A stretch of DNA of 22,216 bases from a virus. Lineage: Duplodnaviria; Heunggongvirae; Uroviricota; Caudoviricetes. This document shows, piece by piece, positions 7,980-17,541 of this stretch. The stretch lies in the IMG/VR virus record IMGVR_UViG_2681813161_000004. One strand, 5' to 3'. The notes beneath the pieces are model-generated. The model was not told the origin of the DNA, ran no database searches, and saw nothing but the letters and a program-made list of their open reading frames with translations. The position numbers and the translations under genes were made by a program. Position 1 is the first letter of the stretch. Every line of letters begins with the position of its first letter.

Positions 7980-10900
7980 CTACCTCACAACAACCAGCAA
8001 ATCGCTGATACTTGCTGTGGGATACCAGCCATTTACCAGCCATGCCGATACAGAAAACTCCAGCGTCATGTGACCGTGACCGGCAGGCATATCAATAACA
8101 CCCGTATATATCAGCGTATTATCCAGGGTCGTTCGGTTATAAATTTCAGCACCGTTTTTCTTCACTATCAGGCTGCATGACGAATAAATATTGTTATTCT
8201 TCCGCTCATGTTTAGCACCGCGAAACGCCACCGCGGGAATAACAATTTGCCGATCAAACGGCTGATCGTCATAAACCCTGACGGTAATGGTCCCTGATGG
8301 CCACCTCTCCGGTGCCCGGGAGTCCCGTGGGAAAGGTTTGCCCACTGTTTTAACGAGATCGCCTTCAATCTGGTTCGCGGACAATTTTCCCAGAACCCGA
8401 CAGTTCTTATTAATCGTGACGTTGTTGAGCGTCCCGGAGTTCGCGTTCACGTTACCGCTGATATCGGCATTTTTCGCCGTCAGCCGTCCGCCAGGTGTCA
8501 GGGAAAATGCCGGAGGATTACCGCCGCTGGTAATGGTCGGAGCCGTCAGGCGTTTCAGGAACACGTCGTTCATGAATATCTGATCGCCCTGACCAACAAA
8601 CATCGGCTTTGTGTTGCCATTCGCAGGATTAATCATCGCAATCCTGTCTGCCGCCAGCAGCACCTGACTCTGCATTCCTGCTGGCGTATTCTCAATACCG
8701 GCACCGATACCCGCAATATAAAGGCGTCCGTCCTTCATCTGTTGCAGCTTCACAGCCCACATGCTGTTCAGGTTATTATTTGTATCAACCTGAACTTTCT
8801 GTATCTGCTGGATTGCAGCACTCTGATTTTCCAGTTTTTTATTGACGGTTTGCGTGATTTCATTGCTGACATTCGTAATGGACGTCCTGATTTCAGTCAG
8901 GTCCGGCGCAAGCTGACCGTTATCAATCTGCGTCCACAACTCCTTGCCGAGATGCGTGTTATTGATCAACCCTTTATAAAAACTCAGATAACCTTCCGCA
9001 TCATCGCTCGCCCGACCGACGGCCTCCACAAATGCCGATTTGCCAACGGTGTTCACACTGCGAACGTAAAAATAATAATCATGGCCCGGCCTGATATTGA
9101 TACTGGCGGCTATCCAGTACAGCGCCGTGCCAAGATAGCGGGCGCTGGTTTCAACCTGCCTGATATCCGCAATCCGCTTTTCCGAAAACCAGAACTCAAA
9201 CTGCACCGTCGGGTCGTATACAGCCAGTTTCGGGACCGCCGTTATCTGAAAATACCCCGGTATCAGTTCAATAGTGACAGGCGCTGCCGGTGCCGCAATC
9301 CGGAACGATACCGACGCCGGATCGCCCTGCTGCCCCCGGGCATTTACCGCCCGGACTGTCAGACTGTAATTCCCCAGCGCCAGCTGCCTGAAGCGGTATG
9401 TGGTTTCCGTCGTCCTGGCTGTGCTGACCAGCCGCTCACTGCCGTCGTCCGCTGCCACGGTCAGGCGAAGCAGGAAGCTCACACCCTTCACCACCTTCGG
9501 CGTGTCCCATCGCGCCAGCACCTGATATTCCCCGCTGTCTGCGGTGACTTCGGCGGTCAGATGCTGCACCGCTGGCGGCGTGACACCATTCACCGTGCCG
9601 CGCCGGTCACCGTCAAAGTGTGCCCCGTTATCCACGATGGCCTCTTTTTCCGGCACATGCTGCACGGCGGTGATGGCATACGTGCCGTCGTCGTTCTCAC
9701 GGATACTCACGCAGCGGAACAGGCGCTGGCGCAGCGTCGGCAGCTTCAGCCCCCACACGCTGTATTCTGCAACGCCGTCAGGAACCCGGCTCACTTTCAC
9801 CTTCACGCCGTCGGTGACGGACTGAACCTCCACGCTGACCGGATTGCCATTTCCGTCAACCAGGCTTATCAGCGTGGTACAGGAGGACGGCAGCGTGATT
9901 TCACGGTCGAGCGTCAGCGTCCGGGTCTGGCTGTTCACCGCCAGTACGCGACCACCGGTGCTGATACCGGCATAATCATCATCGCAGATTTCAATGACAT
10001 CACCCGGTACATGGCGAAGCCCTTCTGCGCCGACGCTGAAGTCCACGGTCTGCGTTTCCAGCAGTTCCGTTTTAATCAGCCACAGCCCGGCGCGGTGCGC
10101 CTGTCCCCGGCTGGTACAGCCAAAGGCATCCATCTTCGTGACGTTACGACCGTAACGGAGAATGGCCTGCGCGTCCTCCACAAGCTCTGTCGCCGTCTCA
10201 TGACCGTTGTCCGGATCAATCCAGTTCACCTCAACGACATTATGGCGGTCCTTCAGGGCGCTGAAGCTGTAGCGGAACGGCGCGCCATCATCCGGCATCA
10301 CCACATTACTGCGGTTATAGGTCCACACTTTATCCGACGGTCGGTCCTGCACGAACGTCAGCGTCTGCCCGTTCCATACCGGCATACAGCGCATCGCCGA
10401 GCAGAAATCACTGAGAACATCCCACGCCTTACGCTGTGTGGTCAGGTAAGCGTTACAGGTGATGCGCGGCTCCGTGCCGCCAAATCCGTCCGGCACTGAC
10501 TGGTCGCAGTACTGGCCGATGACATACAGCGCCCATTTGTCCACATCTGCCGCACCAAGACGTTTCCCCATGCCGTAGCGCGGATGAGTGAGCATGTCCC
10601 ACCGACACCAGGCCATGTTGTTGCTGTATGCTGGCTTAAGCGTTCCGTCCCAGATACCGCTGTATTGCCGCGTCTGCGGGTTATAGTTCGACGGCACCTG
10701 CAGAATGCGCCCGCGAAGATGATAATTGCGACTCACCTGCTGGTTACCGAACTGCTCTGAATCCACCTGCACGCCGACCAGCGCCGTGTTCGGGTAGCAC
10801 TGTTTCACATCGATGATTTCGGTGTACGACGACCAGAGCGTTTTGTTCTGCAGCTGGTCTGTGGTGCTGTCCGGTGTCATCCTGCGCATCCGGATATTAA

Positions 10901-11429
10901 ACGGGCGCGGCGGCAGGTTACCCACCACCACCGAGGCCAGATACTGCGAAGTGGTTTTGCCCTTAATGGTGATGTCTTTTTCCGTCACCCAGCCACCGTT
11001 ACGCTGTATCTGAACCAGCAGGCGGACTTCCGACGGATTCCGGTCCCCCTTTGAGGTGTTTTCCACCAGTGCCTGCACACTGAAGGTCAGGCGCAGACGA
11101 TCAATGTTTGCCGACGTGATGGTCCGGGTGATCGGCGTGTCGTATTTCACTTCCGTACCCAGCACAGTCTCTGAGCCGGAAGATTCAAACCCCTCCGGCG
11201 GTGTCTGCTCCTGCTCGCCGGCGCGGAACACCACCGTAACACCGGAAAAGTTTGTCTTCCCCTCGCTGTCCAGGACTGGCGTACCGTTCAGCAGCACGCT
11301 TTTTAATCCATCCACCGGACCGTCAACCGGCCCTTCGCTGATGGCATCAATCACACTCAGCAACTGCGTGGATTTCAGGTTGTCCTTCGCTTCGCGCGGG
11401 GTATGCCCCTTACTGCTGCCTTTACCCAT
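7980..11429 (-). CDS. J: Tail tip / host specificity protein J (central tail fibre)
   Basis: 1149-aa intact ORF; the N-terminal ~800 residues closely follow lambda J as recalled ([34 protein letters not shown]...); the C-terminal ~300 residues diverge. Confidence 0.95.
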
Positions 11430-11450
11430 TCCTCACGCTCCATAAACGAC

Positions 11451-11474
11451 AAAACCGCCCGCAGGCGGTTTCAC
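11451..11474 (-). other. GC-rich hairpin followed by a T-run in the I-J spacer (terminator- or attenuator-like)
   Basis: - strand aaaccgcc tgcg ggcggtttt: 8-bp stem, 4-nt loop, T4, 22 nt before the J start codon. Confidence 0.4.
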
Positions 11475-11489
11475 ATGAAACATTTTGCA

Positions 11490-12131
11490 TCAGCGACCAA
11501 TCACCACAACCTGACCACCATCCCCTTCGTCTGCCGTGCTGATCTCCTGAGATACCACCCGCGACCCCACGCGCATTTCACCGTACAGAACAGGCAGAAC
11601 ATTGCCCTGGGCAACCATGTTATCCAGTGAGGAGAAACAGGTGTTCTGTTTGCCGTTATCCGTTGTCTGTGTACGGGGAGTTCTGGCTTTCGGTGCCAGC
11701 ATCTGTGCAACACCGCCAAGCGTCATACTGGCACCGAGAGAAAACAGCAGATTACTCGCCATAATTCCTACCCCCGGCATCCATATAGCAACCGCCATAA
11801 CAGCTGCCCCCAGCACCGCCTGAAACACACCGCCACTTTTAGCTCCCACCAGACGCGGTACTATGTGGATCACTGCACCATTTGCCAGCGGCTCATTAAG
11901 ACGGGCAGACAATTCGGTTTCACCTGCATCACGCCCGGCAATGCGCACCTGATACCAGCCGTCACTCAGTTTCTGACGAAACGCCGGGAGCTGTGTGGCC
12001 AGTGCGCGGATGGCTTCAGCCCCCGTTTTCACACGAAGGTCGATGCGGCGGCCAAATCGTTGCAAATCCCCGTAAAGGCAGATGCGTGCCATTCCCGGTG
12101 ACGCCAGAGGGAGTGTGTGCGTCGCTGCCAT
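11490..12131 (-). CDS. I: Tail assembly protein I
   Basis: 213-aa ORF; N-terminus MAATHTLPLASPGMARICLYGDLQRFGRRIDLRVKTGAEAIRALATQLPAFRQKLSDGWYQVRIAGRD and C-terminus ...VVSQEISTADEGDGGQVVVIGR match lambda I from recall; overlaps K by about 100 nt, as in lambda. Confidence 0.93.
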   Translation of the reverse strand: MAATHTLPLASPGMARICLYGDLQRFGRRIDLRVKTGAEAIRALATQLPAFRQKLSDGWYQVRIAGRDAGETELSARLNEPLANGAVIHIVPRLVGAKSGGVFQAVLGAAVMAVAIWMPGVGIMASNLLFSLGASMTLGGVAQMLAPKARTPRTQTTDNGKQNTCFSSLDNMVAQGNVLPVLYGEMRVGSRVVSQEISTADEGDGGQVVVIGR

Positions 12132-12772
12132 TTGTCGGTATACCTCTCTCGTTTACTCAGTTGTTCAGGAATATGGTGCAGCAGCTCACCGTCGCCGCAG
12201 TAAATGGCGGCATGATTCGGCACCGATGAACCAAAACAGCACAGCAGCACATCGCCCGGTTGTGCTGATGACAACGGCACCTGATACAGCCCTGTGGCCT
12301 CCAGATTATCCAGATAGAGATTCTGACCGTGACGCCACCAGTCATCCCCGCGATGAAAATCCGGCATCTCAATCCCCGCCAGATGATAAGCATCCCGGAA
12401 CAGCGTGTAACAGTCCGTCACCCCGTGCTCAAAGCGCCGCCCGGTGAGATGCGGCACACAGCGGAACTTGTGAATCGCCCCCCGGCAGACCAGCCACCAC
12501 GGCAAATCACTCTGCACCTGCAGCCGCCGGTCAGCCTCACTCAGCCAGGGCAGACCACCGGGATGACTGTGGACCAGTGCCACAATCTCCCCCTGCATCT
12601 CTGCCCGCAGCCAGTCTTCCGGTGCGATACGAAAATACGCCTCCGGCTCTGCAGAAATATTCACACAAGGGATATACCGCTCCCCCTCCGGCGTTCTCAC
12701 CACGAAGCCACACGACTCCGCTGGCGCACATCGCCGGGCGTGCGCCAGAATCGCTGATTCTGTCTGTGTCAT
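12029..12772 (-). CDS. K: Tail assembly protein K (JAMM/MPN plus NlpC/P60-like domains)
   Basis: Starts MTQTESAILAHARRCAPAESCGFVV... with the HSHPGG metal-binding motif; matches lambda K from recall. The ORF-track start at 13036 is an antisense-like extension with no homology and is rejected. Confidence 0.92.
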   Translation of the reverse strand: MTQTESAILAHARRCAPAESCGFVVRTPEGERYIPCVNISAEPEAYFRIAPEDWLRAEMQGEIVALVHSHPGGLPWLSEADRRLQVQSDLPWWLVCRGAIHKFRCVPHLTGRRFEHGVTDCYTLFRDAYHLAGIEMPDFHRGDDWWRHGQNLYLDNLEATGLYQVPLSSAQPGDVLLCCFGSSVPNHAAIYCGDGELLHHIPEQLSKRERYTDKWQRRTHSLWRHREWHASAFTGICNDLAAASTFV

Positions 12773-12776
12773 GGAT

Positions 12777-13476
12777 TTACTGAGAAAGTTTATTGATGGA
12801 AAGGAAACCGCCGAAATTACCGGTATTGTTGCGCAACTCACACCCGCGCATACACTTGCTGCATTTGTCCTTCCGGATATCCGTCGTTGGTTTGTCGAAC
12901 TCGTCAGCCACTGCCCTGCCCGTGTAACCACACTCATCAGAACGGTAGGTCCACATACAGGTATTCGCCAGCATGATACGCCCCGGGAAAACCGCGCCAT
13001 CCGTCTCCGTTGGTGTGGCCAGCACAAAAGAGGCACTGACCGCGCTCAGTTCGCTGCACTGCTCGATGCGCCAGCGGCTGATCACCTCCTGCTCCGGATC
13101 GGCGTCACTGTTTCCGTTGACGAAGTTCACCGCATCCAGAAAACGGGCGTAAACCTTACGCCGGACCACCGTTCCGCCGACCAGACTCTGCAGATCTTCC
13201 GCCATCCCGGCGACCATACCGTACAGGTTAGAAACCGTCAGCGTGGGGCGCGTACTGGTGCCTTTGCCATTCAGTTCAAAACCACTCCCCCTGAATGGGA
13301 TACGGCTGATACTGTCGCCCCTGCCAGGTGACCGGCTCACCTTTTTCGTTCTGCTCATTACAGAAAAAATAACGTTCTCCACCGACCTCTGTCAGGTCGA
13401 TTTCCCAGAGCACCACGCTGGCCGACTGCTCCGCACGGGTGCATTCATTCAGTGTTTCCTGCCGGATATCCTGCAT
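12777..13476 (-). pseudogene. L: Tail tip protein L, disrupted by a +1 insertion in a G-run (five C on plus strand, 13287-13291)
   Basis: N-terminal piece (13276-13476) MQDIRQETLNECTRAEQSASVVLWEIDLTEVGGERYFFCNEQNEKGEPVTWQGRQYQPYPIQG then stop; C-terminal piece in another frame resumes ...GSGFELNGKGTSTRPTLTVSNLYGMV...FLSINKLSQ. Removing one G from cagggggagtgg restores PYPIQGSGFELNGKG, exactly as in lambda L from recall. Confidence 0.85.
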
Positions 13477-13805
13477 CAGTTCACCACCTGTTCAAAATCG
13501 GCCGTTACAGTCACCCATAACGCCCCCACGCTTGCCGACCATTTACGACAAGCCACCCTGATCGGTTTCCAGTCATAAGGTGGCGTCCACTGAAATGCGC
13601 GGACGCCACCGTGCCGTTCCAGAAAGGCTTTTAAAGGTGGGTGTTCACCTTTACGAACACGTATCGTCACGCTGTAAGTCGACAGCAGATTATTCAGTCC
13701 CGCCGGGCGACGCTGTTCATAACCATCACCCAGCTTCACTGCCACCACTTTTGGCTCTGATACCACATTCATATCCGGGCGCACCTTCCAGCGAAACGTC
13801 TCCAT
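13476..13805 (-). CDS. M: Tail tip protein M
   Basis: 109-aa ORF METFRWKVRPDMNVV...GDGYEQRRPAGLN...WTPPYDWKPI...FEQVVN, matching lambda M from recall; start overlaps the H stop (TAATG), stop overlaps the L start (TGATG). Confidence 0.93.
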   Translation of the reverse strand: METFRWKVRPDMNVVSEPKVVAVKLGDGYEQRRPAGLNNLLSTYSVTIRVRKGEHPPLKAFLERHGGVRAFQWTPPYDWKPIRVACRKWSASVGALWVTVTADFEQVVN

Positions 13806-16800
13806 TACCGGTATGCTCCACTTAACCGGCCACCATCACGGGCCTGCTGTTGCATAAAGTCCGCGGCCGCTTTTTTCCCGAGGTCATAAACCACCTTCAG
13901 TGCTGCCGGACCTATCTGCCCGTTCGTGCCGTCGTTATTGATCCCGATGTTGTACTGCGGGGCAAACATCACCATGCCTGAACCACCAGTATCCGCCACA
14001 ACCCCCAGCTTACCATCAGCACCGCGACGCAGTGGCAGAATGGCTTCAGGTCCCGCTTCCCCCATCACACCCGCGCCTTTTGCAAAAGCAAAAAACGTCG
14101 GACGGTTAACCACCGTGCCACTGTAGCGACTCAAATCAGCAGACTGGTAAACACCGCCATCAGCATTAGTCGTGAAGCCGAATAAAGAGCCGACGCCCTT
14201 TACCGCCTGCATCATGGCCATCTGTGCCATAATTCTGGCCATATCTGACAACAGGGAAGAGGTGAAGGATTTAAAATTCAGCTTACCGGTGGTACAGAAT
14301 GTCGCCAGTGCATTACCGGCACTGCTGAATGCCACTGTAAACATCTGTTCTGCCGTTCCCACCGCATTATCCGCATCCGCCGTAAAATTCTGAAACGCCC
14401 GCATGGCACCGTTTTTCCAGTCGCCCTGCGCCACTTCCAGTTCCTGCCAGTAGCGTTTGTTTTCATTCAGTTGTCGCTTCAGGCTCCCCTTCAGCACCTC
14501 CTCAGCCCTCCGGTAGTCCTCCGTCCCGTAAGTGCCTTTCTGGCGACTGTCATTCTCAAGCTGTTGCAACTGTTGCCGGTATTCCTGCCGGATGCGCAAC
14601 TGTGCCTGGTAGCGCTGCCGCTGCTTATCCCCCATACCTGCAGTGGCAATATCCAGATTGTGCTGCTCACGCAGTGCACGTTCTTTGTCTGCCAGCTGGC
14701 TGGTCAGCTGAACCGTTTTTTTTCTCAGGTCGTTAAGCGCTGTCTGTTTCTGCAGCTCCTGCTGTTTCACATCCAGCAGCGTCAGCGCCTGAATCAGCTC
14801 ATTCTTACGGGCCAGCACACTCTTTTCATCTGCCGTCAGCTTTTTCCCGTCCAGGTCGCTGATGCGCTGCTGCAGGGCCAGAAGCTGTTTATGCGCTTCA
14901 GTCATCCTTTCAGTGGCAATGCCTGCTGACTGTCTGGCAGCAGCAATCTGCCCTTCCACCTGTGCCTGCTGCTGACTGTACTGCAGCAATAACCGGGTGG
15001 CCTCATCATTACGGGTTGCCCGTGTATTTTTCTTAATGGCTTTTTCGTAACGTTCATTTTCACGCTGTATCGCCGCATCCCTGACAGCCTGGTCGGCGTA
15101 CTGCATGGCATTAATACGCGCAATTTCCCGCTGATGTCGTGCAGCTTCCGTTTCATTCATCCGGTTCAGCGCGGCATTTTCAGCATTCCGGCGTTTCTGT
15201 TGCTCCTGGTAATTCCGTTCTGCCTGCGCTTTTGCATCCTGCAAATCCTTCCGGCGTTTTTTCTCCTGAAGATCGTTAAGACGCTGCTGATCGTACTCCA
15301 CCTGTGTGGAGGCGTTTGTCCACGGATATTTTTTCGCGCGCTGAATTTTTTCCTGTAACGCATCAATCTGCGCATCCAGCGAGTCTTCACGACCAATATT
15401 CATGGCCGCATCCCAGAACTGCTTCCACCAGTCAGACAAGGTTTGCAGCGTACTACCCAGCGCATTGAGATTATTATCAATATCAGATGTGCGTTTACCG
15501 GTTTCCTCTGCCAGCGCAGACATGGCGATCCGGGCCGCATCACTGGACCGCCCCTGCTCCCCAAGGACGCGTATCTGCTCAAGCTGAGTGGCAGTCAAAA
15601 AATGCAGCGCATTGTCCAGCGCCTTCGCGGCATTTACAGGATCATCCTTCAGCCGCTTAAACTGATTTATGGTATCGCTGACCGACTGGCCAACCGATCG
15701 CTCCATCTGTGCGGCAGCTTTCGCCACCATACCAATATCGTTTCCATGAAATGCCCCACTGCCCACCACCTGTGCCAGCGCACCGGCTGCCGCATGTTGC
15801 GTGATACCATTCCCGGATATGGCCCGGCTGAGTTTCCACAACTGCCCGACAGTGACACCGGCATAATGTCCCGTCAGCGCCAGCTGACGGTTAAATTCCT
15901 CGCCCTCCTTCCGGCCGTCATGCCAGGCTTTACCCAGACCCAGGACCGCCGCGACAAGTCCGCCAATAACGCCGCCAGTCATCATGCCTTTCGGCGACAT
16001 CAGTGCGCCTGTCCATCCGGCACGGTTAGCCAGCGTTATCCCGGATCCCCTCAGCGCACCAAAATTGCCGCGCGCCATCTGACTGATTAACACCCCCAGC
16101 TCCCGCCGGGCTGCCGCACTTTTCAGCCCCAGCGAATGTGTGGCTTTTCCTGCCCGCTCCATTTTGCGGATATACACTTCTGCAGCACTGCTTACCCCCA
16201 GCTGAGCCGCCCTGGCGCGAAGCAACTCAGAAGACGACAGATTCTGGCGGGTTGCCTGCTCTTTAAGCTGGCGGATAAACGCCGCTTTCTGCCGGGTGGC
16301 CTGTTCCTCTGCCTGCGTCAGGGCACGGGTTTTCGCCGTGATCTCCGAAATCAGCGCCAGATAATCCTGCTGACCAACCCCGCCACTGTTTCTGGCCTGT
16401 CGGATCTGCTGCTGAATACGCTGTAATTCCTGAAGCCCCGCACCGGCCTGTTTCACACTGTCAATCTGGCGATAAAAGGCGGCAGCCGCTTTATCCTGCG
16501 CCTCCGCCAGTGCCCTGGCCTGCGCCTGTTCCTCGCGCATTTTCTGATTCAGGGCATCCACGCGCAGACGGGTTTGTTCCACCTCACGGGCCATGCGTTC
16601 ATGAGCCCGTGCATTCTTCTCCACCGTCTGCGCATGGGCTGATGCTGCTGTTGCAGCCGAAGAAGCCGCATGCATTGTCTGCCGGGCCGCCTGAGTCTGA
16701 CGCTCCATAAAACGCTGCATACGGGCAGAAGACCGTTCTGCATCACCGGCTGCACCATTCAGAAGGTTTTTGATACGGGGAATTTCATTTTTAAACTCTG

Positions 16801-16846
16801 CCGCATCAATCCCCAAATCAATGACCAGGTTGGCTATCTGGTCCAT
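13805..16846 (-). CDS. H: Tail tape measure protein H (about 1013 aa from the ATG at 16846)
   Basis: Long intact ORF; coiled-coil Ala/Gln/Arg-rich middle; C-terminus ...NNDGTNGQIGPAALKVVYDLGKKAAADFMQQQARDGGRLSGAYR matches the lambda H C-terminus from recall. Start chosen at the ATG preceded by GGAGGTG; the ORF-track start is a TTG ten codons upstream. Confidence 0.9.
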   Translation of the reverse strand: MDQIANLVIDLGIDAAEFKNEIPRIKNLLNGAAGDAERSSARMQRFMERQTQAARQTMHAASSAATAASAHAQTVEKNARAHERMAREVEQTRLRVDALNQKMREEQAQARALAEAQDKAAAAFYRQIDSVKQAGAGLQELQRIQQQIRQARNSGGVGQQDYLALISEITAKTRALTQAEEQATRQKAAFIRQLKEQATRQNLSSSELLRARAAQLGVSSAAEVYIRKMERAGKATHSLGLKSAAARRELGVLISQMARGNFGALRGSGITLANRAGWTGALMSPKGMMTGGVIGGLVAAVLGLGKAWHDGRKEGEEFNRQLALTGHYAGVTVGQLWKLSRAISGNGITQHAAAGALAQVVGSGAFHGNDIGMVAKAAAQMERSVGQSVSDTINQFKRLKDDPVNAAKALDNALHFLTATQLEQIRVLGEQGRSSDAARIAMSALAEETGKRTSDIDNNLNALGSTLQTLSDWWKQFWDAAMNIGREDSLDAQIDALQEKIQRAKKYPWTNASTQVEYDQQRLNDLQEKKRRKDLQDAKAQAERNYQEQQKRRNAENAALNRMNETEAARHQREIARINAMQYADQAVRDAAIQRENERYEKAIKKNTRATRNDEATRLLLQYSQQQAQVEGQIAAARQSAGIATERMTEAHKQLLALQQRISDLDGKKLTADEKSVLARKNELIQALTLLDVKQQELQKQTALNDLRKKTVQLTSQLADKERALREQHNLDIATAGMGDKQRQRYQAQLRIRQEYRQQLQQLENDSRQKGTYGTEDYRRAEEVLKGSLKRQLNENKRYWQELEVAQGDWKNGAMRAFQNFTADADNAVGTAEQMFTVAFSSAGNALATFCTTGKLNFKSFTSSLLSDMARIMAQMAMMQAVKGVGSLFGFTTNADGGVYQSADLSRYSGTVVNRPTFFAFAKGAGVMGEAGPEAILPLRRGADGKLGVVADTGGSGMVMFAPQYNIGINNDGTNGQIGPAALKVVYDLGKKAAADFMQQQARDGGRLSGAYR

Positions 16847-17154
16847 AACGCACACCTCCGGAAATACCTTCCCCAAGATGCATCAGTTCTTCGTCCGTTC
16901 GCTCCGGTATCCCGTTCTCTTCCGGTAAAAGGCTGAAATCAGCCACCGCAGCATCACTGCTGCCGGACACCATTCTCACGATCAATGCCTTCAGCGAGGC
17001 AAACTGCGCATCCATCCACACATCACTGAAGCTCTGCATCCGGAAATAATCGCCCCCTCACCAAGCTCAGTGGCCGACATTTCCGACAGCATCCGCCGCC
17101 AGTCTGCCCGCCGGAACTCCCGGGCAAGCCGCATGACAAACTGCATTTCCCGCG
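16818..17154 (-). pseudogene. T: T region of the G-T tail assembly chaperone (-1 frameshift extension of G), apparently interrupted by a further frame change near a five-C run (plus 17053-17057)
   Basis: The -1 frame from the G slippery site is open and protein-like to a stop at 16991-16993 (...REMQFVMRLAREFRRADWRRMLSEMSATELGEG...); a third frame then carries the protein-like ORF 16818-17039 (MQSFSDVWMDAQFASLKALIV...), which ends 29 nt into H. The two pieces cannot be joined without a 1-nt indel around 17040-17060. Confidence 0.45.
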
Positions 17155-17541
17155 TCAGGACTTTTCCGGCGTCAGCGCCTCATGATCATCATCCCCGGCA
17201 TTCTCAATGGTCCCCATACCGCTCAGCGACAGAACCCTCTCCGCCCCCGCGCCCAGCGCATCATACGACCATGTTGTCATAATGGATGCGCAAAGCGTCT
17301 CAACATCCTGAGACTGCTCAGCATTCCACAGTGAGCGGGAAACCAGCCAGGCATTGATATCCATTCCCATACGCAGAAAAGCAATCTGTCGTTCAGCCTC
17401 CGGCAGTTCTCCCTCCTGTGCATCAAACTTTGCCGTTCGCTGCTGAACAAACGTCAGATATTCAATTCTCTGCAGCCCGGACAGCTCACTGAGCACCACG
17501 GACTGTTTTTCATAATTAAACGTATCCTGTTTCAGAAACAT
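17155..17541 (-). CDS. G: Tail assembly chaperone G
   Basis: Starts MFLKQDTFNYEKQSVVLSELSGLQRIEYL..., compare lambda G MFLKTESFEHNGVTVTLSELSALQRIEHL from recall; candidate slippery heptamer G GAA AAG (plus 17161-17167) five codons before the stop, at the position of lambda's G GGA AAG. Confidence 0.88.
   Translation of the reverse strand: MFLKQDTFNYEKQSVVLSELSGLQRIEYLTFVQQRTAKFDAQEGELPEAERQIAFLRMGMDINAWLVSRSLWNAEQSQDVETLCASIMTTWSYDALGAGAERVLSLSGMGTIENAGDDDHEALTPEKS

Follow-up and report, generated by a model that had tools for sequence, protein, structure and literature searches.

A one-base frameshift in the tail tip gene L of an ipaHd-bearing prophage remnant in Shigella

Tail module and ipaHd cargo of the window

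The minus strand of the window (the whole stretch of DNA analysed here, 22,216 nucleotides, virus record IMGVR_UViG_2681813161_000004) encodes a tail module of the lambda type. Its genes run in the order FII remnant, Z, U, V, G, T, H, M, L, K, I, J, lom, tail fibre and DUF4376, and ipaHd, in the opposite orientation, comes after DUF4376. Eight genes of the module are still open, namely M, K, I, H, G, V, U and Z. The coordinates of these genes and of ipaHd are as follows:

17599..19335, minus strand: V, U and Z tail genes, open ORFs
17155..17541, minus strand: G (tail assembly chaperone), intact ORF
13805..16846, minus strand: H (tape measure), intact ORF
13476..13805, minus strand: M (distal tail protein), intact ORF
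12029..12772, minus strand: K (JAB and NlpC/P60), intact ORF
11490..12032, minus strand: I, intact ORF
2283..4034, plus strand: ipaHd (T3SS effector E3 ligase), intact cargo gene

The product of ipaHd is 583 aa long and scores 562.8 bits against the NCBIfam profile IpaH_Shig (cut-off 550). A MxiE-box-like sequence, GTATCGTTTTTTTACAT, is located at 2071-2087, 196 nt upstream of the ipaHd start, with one mismatch to the consensus and 0.01 occurrences expected by chance. This would be consistent with ipaHd still being under T3SS-linked control.

At the ipaHd end of the window, two IS1 copies (1-753, cut by the window edge, and 1198-1965) flank a 444-bp piece of the chromosomal ydfI/ydfJ junction (754-1197), and related loci have a further ydfI fragment beyond the other end of the remnant. 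This arrangement suggests an IS-mediated rearrangement at a ydfJ-type prophage site. The contig AERO01000018.1, from S. flexneri CDC 796-83, is 100% identical to the window over 6724-17392; in it an IS cuts G at residue 51, the region is joined to chromosomal genes of the kdsB/mukF side, and DUF1133 genes stand in place of lom. It is a different rearrangement of the window's prophage remnant.

The nearest relatives in complete genomes are the ipaHd prophages of enteroinvasive E. coli (EIEC; CFSAN029787, VL46, FDAARGOS_943 and others), with 98-99% nucleotide identity over about 16 kb.

The L frame and the five-G run in related strains

The original prediction had the lambda-like frame of L break off after PYPIQG and resume in another frame, which the ORFs, their coordinates and the split of the PF05100 (Phage_tail_L) match bear out. 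The gene is made up of the following parts:

13276..13476, minus strand: 5' fragment of L (63 native codons, then E-W-F-stop), matching PF05100 positions 1-36
13287..13291, minus strand: G5 homopolymer (five C on the plus strand), which is G4 in intact relatives
12777..13286, minus strand: 3' part of L in the +1 frame, residues 64-232 including Cys173, Cys182, Cys205 and Cys212, matching PF05100 positions 36-206

From the ATG at 13476 the 5' frame reads MQDIRQETLNECTRAEQSASVVLWEIDLTEVGGERYFFCNEQNEKGEPVTWQGRQYQPYPIQGEWF. The ORF begins with MQDIRQ, finishes with QYQPYPIQGEWF at the TGA at 13276-13278 and encodes 66 aa, the last of which are PYPIQGEWF. The lambda-like sequence resumes in the +1 frame with SGFELNGKG and runs to SINKLSQ before a stop (its tail reads FGGFLSINKLSQ), and the two pieces of the PF05100 profile abut exactly. 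L lies between M and K, as in the lambda-type tail-tip operon. Removal of one G from 13287-13291, the repair that had been proposed, does restore the gene: the resulting protein has 232 aa and aligns end to end, 1-232 to 1-232, with the lambda tail tip protein L (PDB 8iyk_L, E-value 4.3e-149). Judged by the alignment, such a match cannot be due to chance, and the downstream frame retains all four Fe-S cysteines at their aligned positions. Members of Phage_tail_L are encoded by a single uninterrupted ORF, but L has a stop after 66 codons. On the evidence of its sequence, L is a pseudogene of the Phage_tail_L / lambda gpL family.

Lambda gpL consists of an N-terminal HDI beta-sandwich (residues 1-166) and a C-terminal Fe-S domain (residues 154-232), the latter with a 4Fe-4S cluster on Cys173, 182, 205 and 212 (PMC10721106). 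The truncated product (66 of 232 aa) is without most of the HDI beta-sandwich and without the whole C-terminal Fe-S domain, and with its 63 native residues it would be unable to form either domain.

In the EIEC prophages the annotation gives L as intact, with 232 aa and the name 'phage minor tail protein L' (WP_001152598.1). Between the window and the three EIEC loci compared, the sole indel in L is the extra base, accompanied by two substitutions in 699 nt. One of the two changes Thr89 to Ala, so that the repaired L is one residue off the EIEC protein.

Comparison of the run length in related strains, as the original prediction had advised, gave a uniform picture. Loci were retrieved through the 66-aa truncated L and then through the M and K proteins of the window, and all of them have GGGGG at the L site. 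Together they represent 20 distinct Shigella assemblies, which belong to serotype 6 strains of S. flexneri and to relatives, so that the run is G5 in 20 of 20 Shigella assemblies and G4 in all three intact EIEC loci examined. Nine of the 20 are complete chromosomes: CP000036.1, which we take to be S. boydii Sb227, CP026811.1, CP055124.1, CP049285.1, CP099865.1, CP162059.1, CP162073.1, CP162080.1 and CP011511.1. Records of exactly this 66-aa protein exist for Shigella flexneri CCH060 and CDC 796-83, and 109 blocks of the assembly collection list it. CP026811.1 is the chromosome of S. flexneri 64-5500, of serotype 6 (PMC9455713), and CDC 796-83 and CCH060 are likewise serotype 6 strains (PMC4206707). 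Several public assemblies list no L product at this place, and older annotations give split ORFs.

The five-G allele is present in none of the 3,394 complete E. coli genomes that match an 80-nt segment around the site, whose best matches are one base shorter. The five-G string was likewise not found in the IMG/VR viral contigs or among the GTDB species representative genomes. The five-G loci are 99.8-100% identical to the window, and they differ among themselves by private lesions that split H, J, K, G, Z or ipaH. They thus stem from different strains and are not copies of one faulty record. The window itself is not fully identical to any locus compared and represents a further independent sequence. 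The recurrence of G5 in 20 assemblies, together with its absence from the E. coli genomes that match the segment, therefore indicates a true mutation that has been fixed in a Shigella lineage.

These data bear on the possibility, raised with the original prediction, that the extra G is a sequencing artefact and that the true sequence has four G and an intact L. Homopolymer miscounts are a common class of error, and the draft AFGC01000023.1 has another homopolymer difference in L (T6 to T5) that might be an error. However, GGGGG appears in 20 assemblies from different projects, complete as well as draft, of strains that are distinct by their other lesions, and the window adds an independent sequence to them. 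A run of five is also short for a systematic error. An artefact can hence be given hardly any weight, and the five-G allele is best regarded as real.

In AFGC01000023.1 the five G are accompanied by the change of T6 to T5, 78 nt upstream, which reopens a 232-aa L ORF with 26 scrambled residues (L at 8330-9028 of the retrieved locus L021). Either the T6 to T5 change is a second mutation that compensates for the first, or the draft miscounts the homopolymer. We considered this locus as a reversion to intact L and rejected it, since it keeps G5 and has a second indel.

The exact repaired protein, with four G and Ala89, is present in 34 contigs labelled Shigella boydii, with EAA1662855.1 as one record of it, which suggests that the ancestral G4 allele of L survives elsewhere in Shigella. 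The M and K proteins of the window, when used as anchors, gave five-G loci only; the four-G Ala89 allele therefore sits with other M and K alleles or in other strains.

The location of the lesion in a mononucleotide run also brings to mind a phase-variable contingency locus that switches L on and off. Five bases are well below the run lengths that slip at useful rates in contingency loci. The run length is constant, at G5 in every Shigella assembly and G4 in the three intact EIEC loci, none of the matching complete E. coli genomes has the 80-nt segment exactly, the best being one base short, and the rest of the tail module is broken. Phase variation was rejected on account of the invariant run length and has a vanishingly small probability.

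Other lesions of the tail module and the fate of L

According to the original prediction, J, I, K, M and H were intact and the L frameshift would by itself stop tail tip assembly. The ORFs of I, K, M and H are indeed open, but J is cut short, and further lesions lie elsewhere in the module:

19567..21956, plus strand: IS66-family element (tnpA, tnpB, transposase), at the expected place of the head genes
19325..19492, minus strand: FII remnant, residues 67-123 only, by comparison with the intact EIEC prophage
16818..17146, minus strand: T part of G-T, in which the loss of 1 bp at about 17057 shifts the frame
7980..11429, minus strand: J, shortened by an IS insertion, with Ig_GpJ_C matched to 124 of 135 positions
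6724..7984, minus strand: IS3-family (IS600-like) element that interrupts the 3' end of J, with CAA at either edge
4213..5994, minus strand: tail-fibre / DUF4376 genes, with losses of 4 bp and 243 bp

Set against its intact EIEC counterpart, the T part of G-T lacks one base at about 17057 on the minus strand (GAGTGGGG to GAGGGGG). Its frame is garbled after SATELGE and soon meets a stop. The deletion is common to the window and all 20 Shigella assemblies and is absent from the EIEC relatives. In lambda, gpGT is needed for tail assembly.

FII is cut down to residues 67-123, with the IS66-family element a short way upstream. This shortened FII beside the IS66-family element, with no head genes adjacent, is again common to the 20 assemblies and the window. 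Where related loci reach further, IS66 is followed by fragments of an IS3 element and of ydfI and by a GGDEF gene, so that the head genes are missing from the place where they would be expected. The head module might conceivably have been relocated elsewhere in the genome.

The element in the 3' end of J comprises orfA (100 aa) and orfB (272 aa). It replaces the last 11 codons of J and its end supplies the stop codon, so that J has 1149 aa compared with 1159 in the intact protein; the two agree no further than residue 1148 of 1159, and the receptor-binding profile Ig_GpJ_C is matched only in part. Besides the window, only some of the five-G strains have the insertion, which is therefore younger. 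In the tail-fibre / DUF4376 genes, a 243-bp deletion lies at about 4685. A 4-bp deletion at about 4895 on the minus strand, the loss of one ACTG unit of (ACTG)3, adds a frameshift to the tail-fibre gene; among the 10 Shigella loci that match the site pattern, the unit loss is private to the window.

The L frameshift is thus not the single lesion that stops the tail, since the T deletion, the cut FII, the cut J and the fibre deletions stand beside it. As far as sequence can tell, the prophage remnant has at least three ancestral lesions, of which the L frameshift is one. The locus has the marks of a cryptic prophage. It has several independent inactivating lesions (+1 in L, -1 in T, the IS in J, the cut in FII and the deletions in the fibre genes). 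In the window and the longer related loci, the head, packaging, lysis and regulatory modules are missing, and the tail module abuts IS elements, followed by ydfI / GGDEF genes of the chromosome. The lesions of L and T are inherited in 20 assemblies at 99.8-100% identity.

Together, our results lead us to propose, with a probability of about 0.93, that the change from G4 to G5 in L is a genuine, vertically inherited and neutral +1 frameshift in a lambda-like prophage that is decaying in a Shigella lineage including S. flexneri serotype 6 strains, and that no functional gpL is made. Replication slippage in the mononucleotide run may have turned G4 into G5. Translation would then stop after 66 residues, leaving the phage without the functional hub protein gpL. 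The prophage would already, or at the same time, have been unable to make particles, so that the lesion in L would have been neutral. Individual strains would go on adding lesions of their own, with ipaHd and the MxiE-box-like site staying intact. Since the T lesion and the FII/IS66 junction are found in every strain with the L lesion, the L frameshift would be neutral or nearly so.

We infer, rather than observe, that there is no gpL at all, for the stop context resembles a +1 recoding site. The +1 motif of prfB, the gene of RF2, consists of AGGGGG, 3 nt, CTT_T, TGA and C, with rare natural TTTTTGA variants (PMC12421855). The mutant L reads CAG GGG GAG UGG UUU UGA A (13276-13300, minus strand), that is, AGGGGG-AGUGG-UUU-UGA-A, with a slippery YUU_U (UUU UGA) directly before the stop. 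One could thus imagine that L is leaky, the insertion having made an RF2-like site at which tRNA-Phe slips +1 at UUU_U and some full-length gpL is produced. As in prfB, AGGGGG, a U-run slip codon right before UGA and a +1 slip into a productive frame are all present, and the slip would lead back into the native frame at the cost of just two exchanges, S64E and G65W. The crude predicted energy of the anti-Shine-Dalgarno duplex is about that of the prfB site, although the duplex is paired into the slip codon and the estimate is too crude to discriminate. However, AGGGGG is 5 nt from the slip codon and not 3 nt as in prfB, with only the weaker register GGGGAG at 3 nt, and the UGA is followed by A and not by the C of a weak stop context. 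The motif was created by mutation, at a place where the gene normally lacks a stop, and is not conserved: the intact relatives have G4, and the allele is absent from the E. coli genomes searched. With T, J, FII and the head module defective, there would also be no selectable function. It is unlikely, though conceivable, that this chance-built shifty stop lets ribosomes slip +1 measurably and yields full-length gpL (S64E/G65W), which would make L leaky rather than null. As an account of the L lesion as a whole, recoding is highly improbable. Measurable leakiness of L is possible but unproven, and biologically moot given the other lesions. The reading that we favour stays a plain frameshift in a decaying prophage.

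The appropriate annotation of L is that of a pseudogene, frameshifted and part of a grounded prophage remnant with ipaHd; it should be flagged neither as a possible sequencing error nor as the only reason for a defective tail. The lesions of L and T that these strains share are stable markers of this Shigella lineage. Set against the intact EIEC counterparts, the locus is a small, clean example of prophage decay with the virulence cargo kept intact, and for the field of +1 frameshifting, the RF2-like motif that arose by accident is a small curiosity. Beyond correct annotation, the significance of the lesion is little.

Comparison with known systems

The L of the window resembles lambda gpL (PF05100; PDB 8IYK chain L) in its alignment over the full 232 aa after repair, in the four Fe-S cysteines and in the gene order M-L-K-I-J. 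It differs from lambda gpL in that its frame is broken after codon 63 and its product has 66 aa.

The ipaHd lambdoid prophages of EIEC share with the window the order of the tail genes, lom, tail fibre and ipaHd. Unlike the window, they have G4 in L, an intact T, a J of 1159 aa and an intact fibre gene, and two of the three have complete head genes. Each of these features is lost or broken in the window.

From the Shigella prophage remnants that surround chromosomal ipaH genes, the window differs in nothing of substance. In these remnants, ipaH lies amid prophage genes, IS elements and pseudogenes, and the window is an instance of this class. The L frameshift accordingly belongs to a type of feature that is already known, namely frameshifted pseudogenes of prophage remnants beside chromosomal ipaH genes, and represents routine prophage decay.
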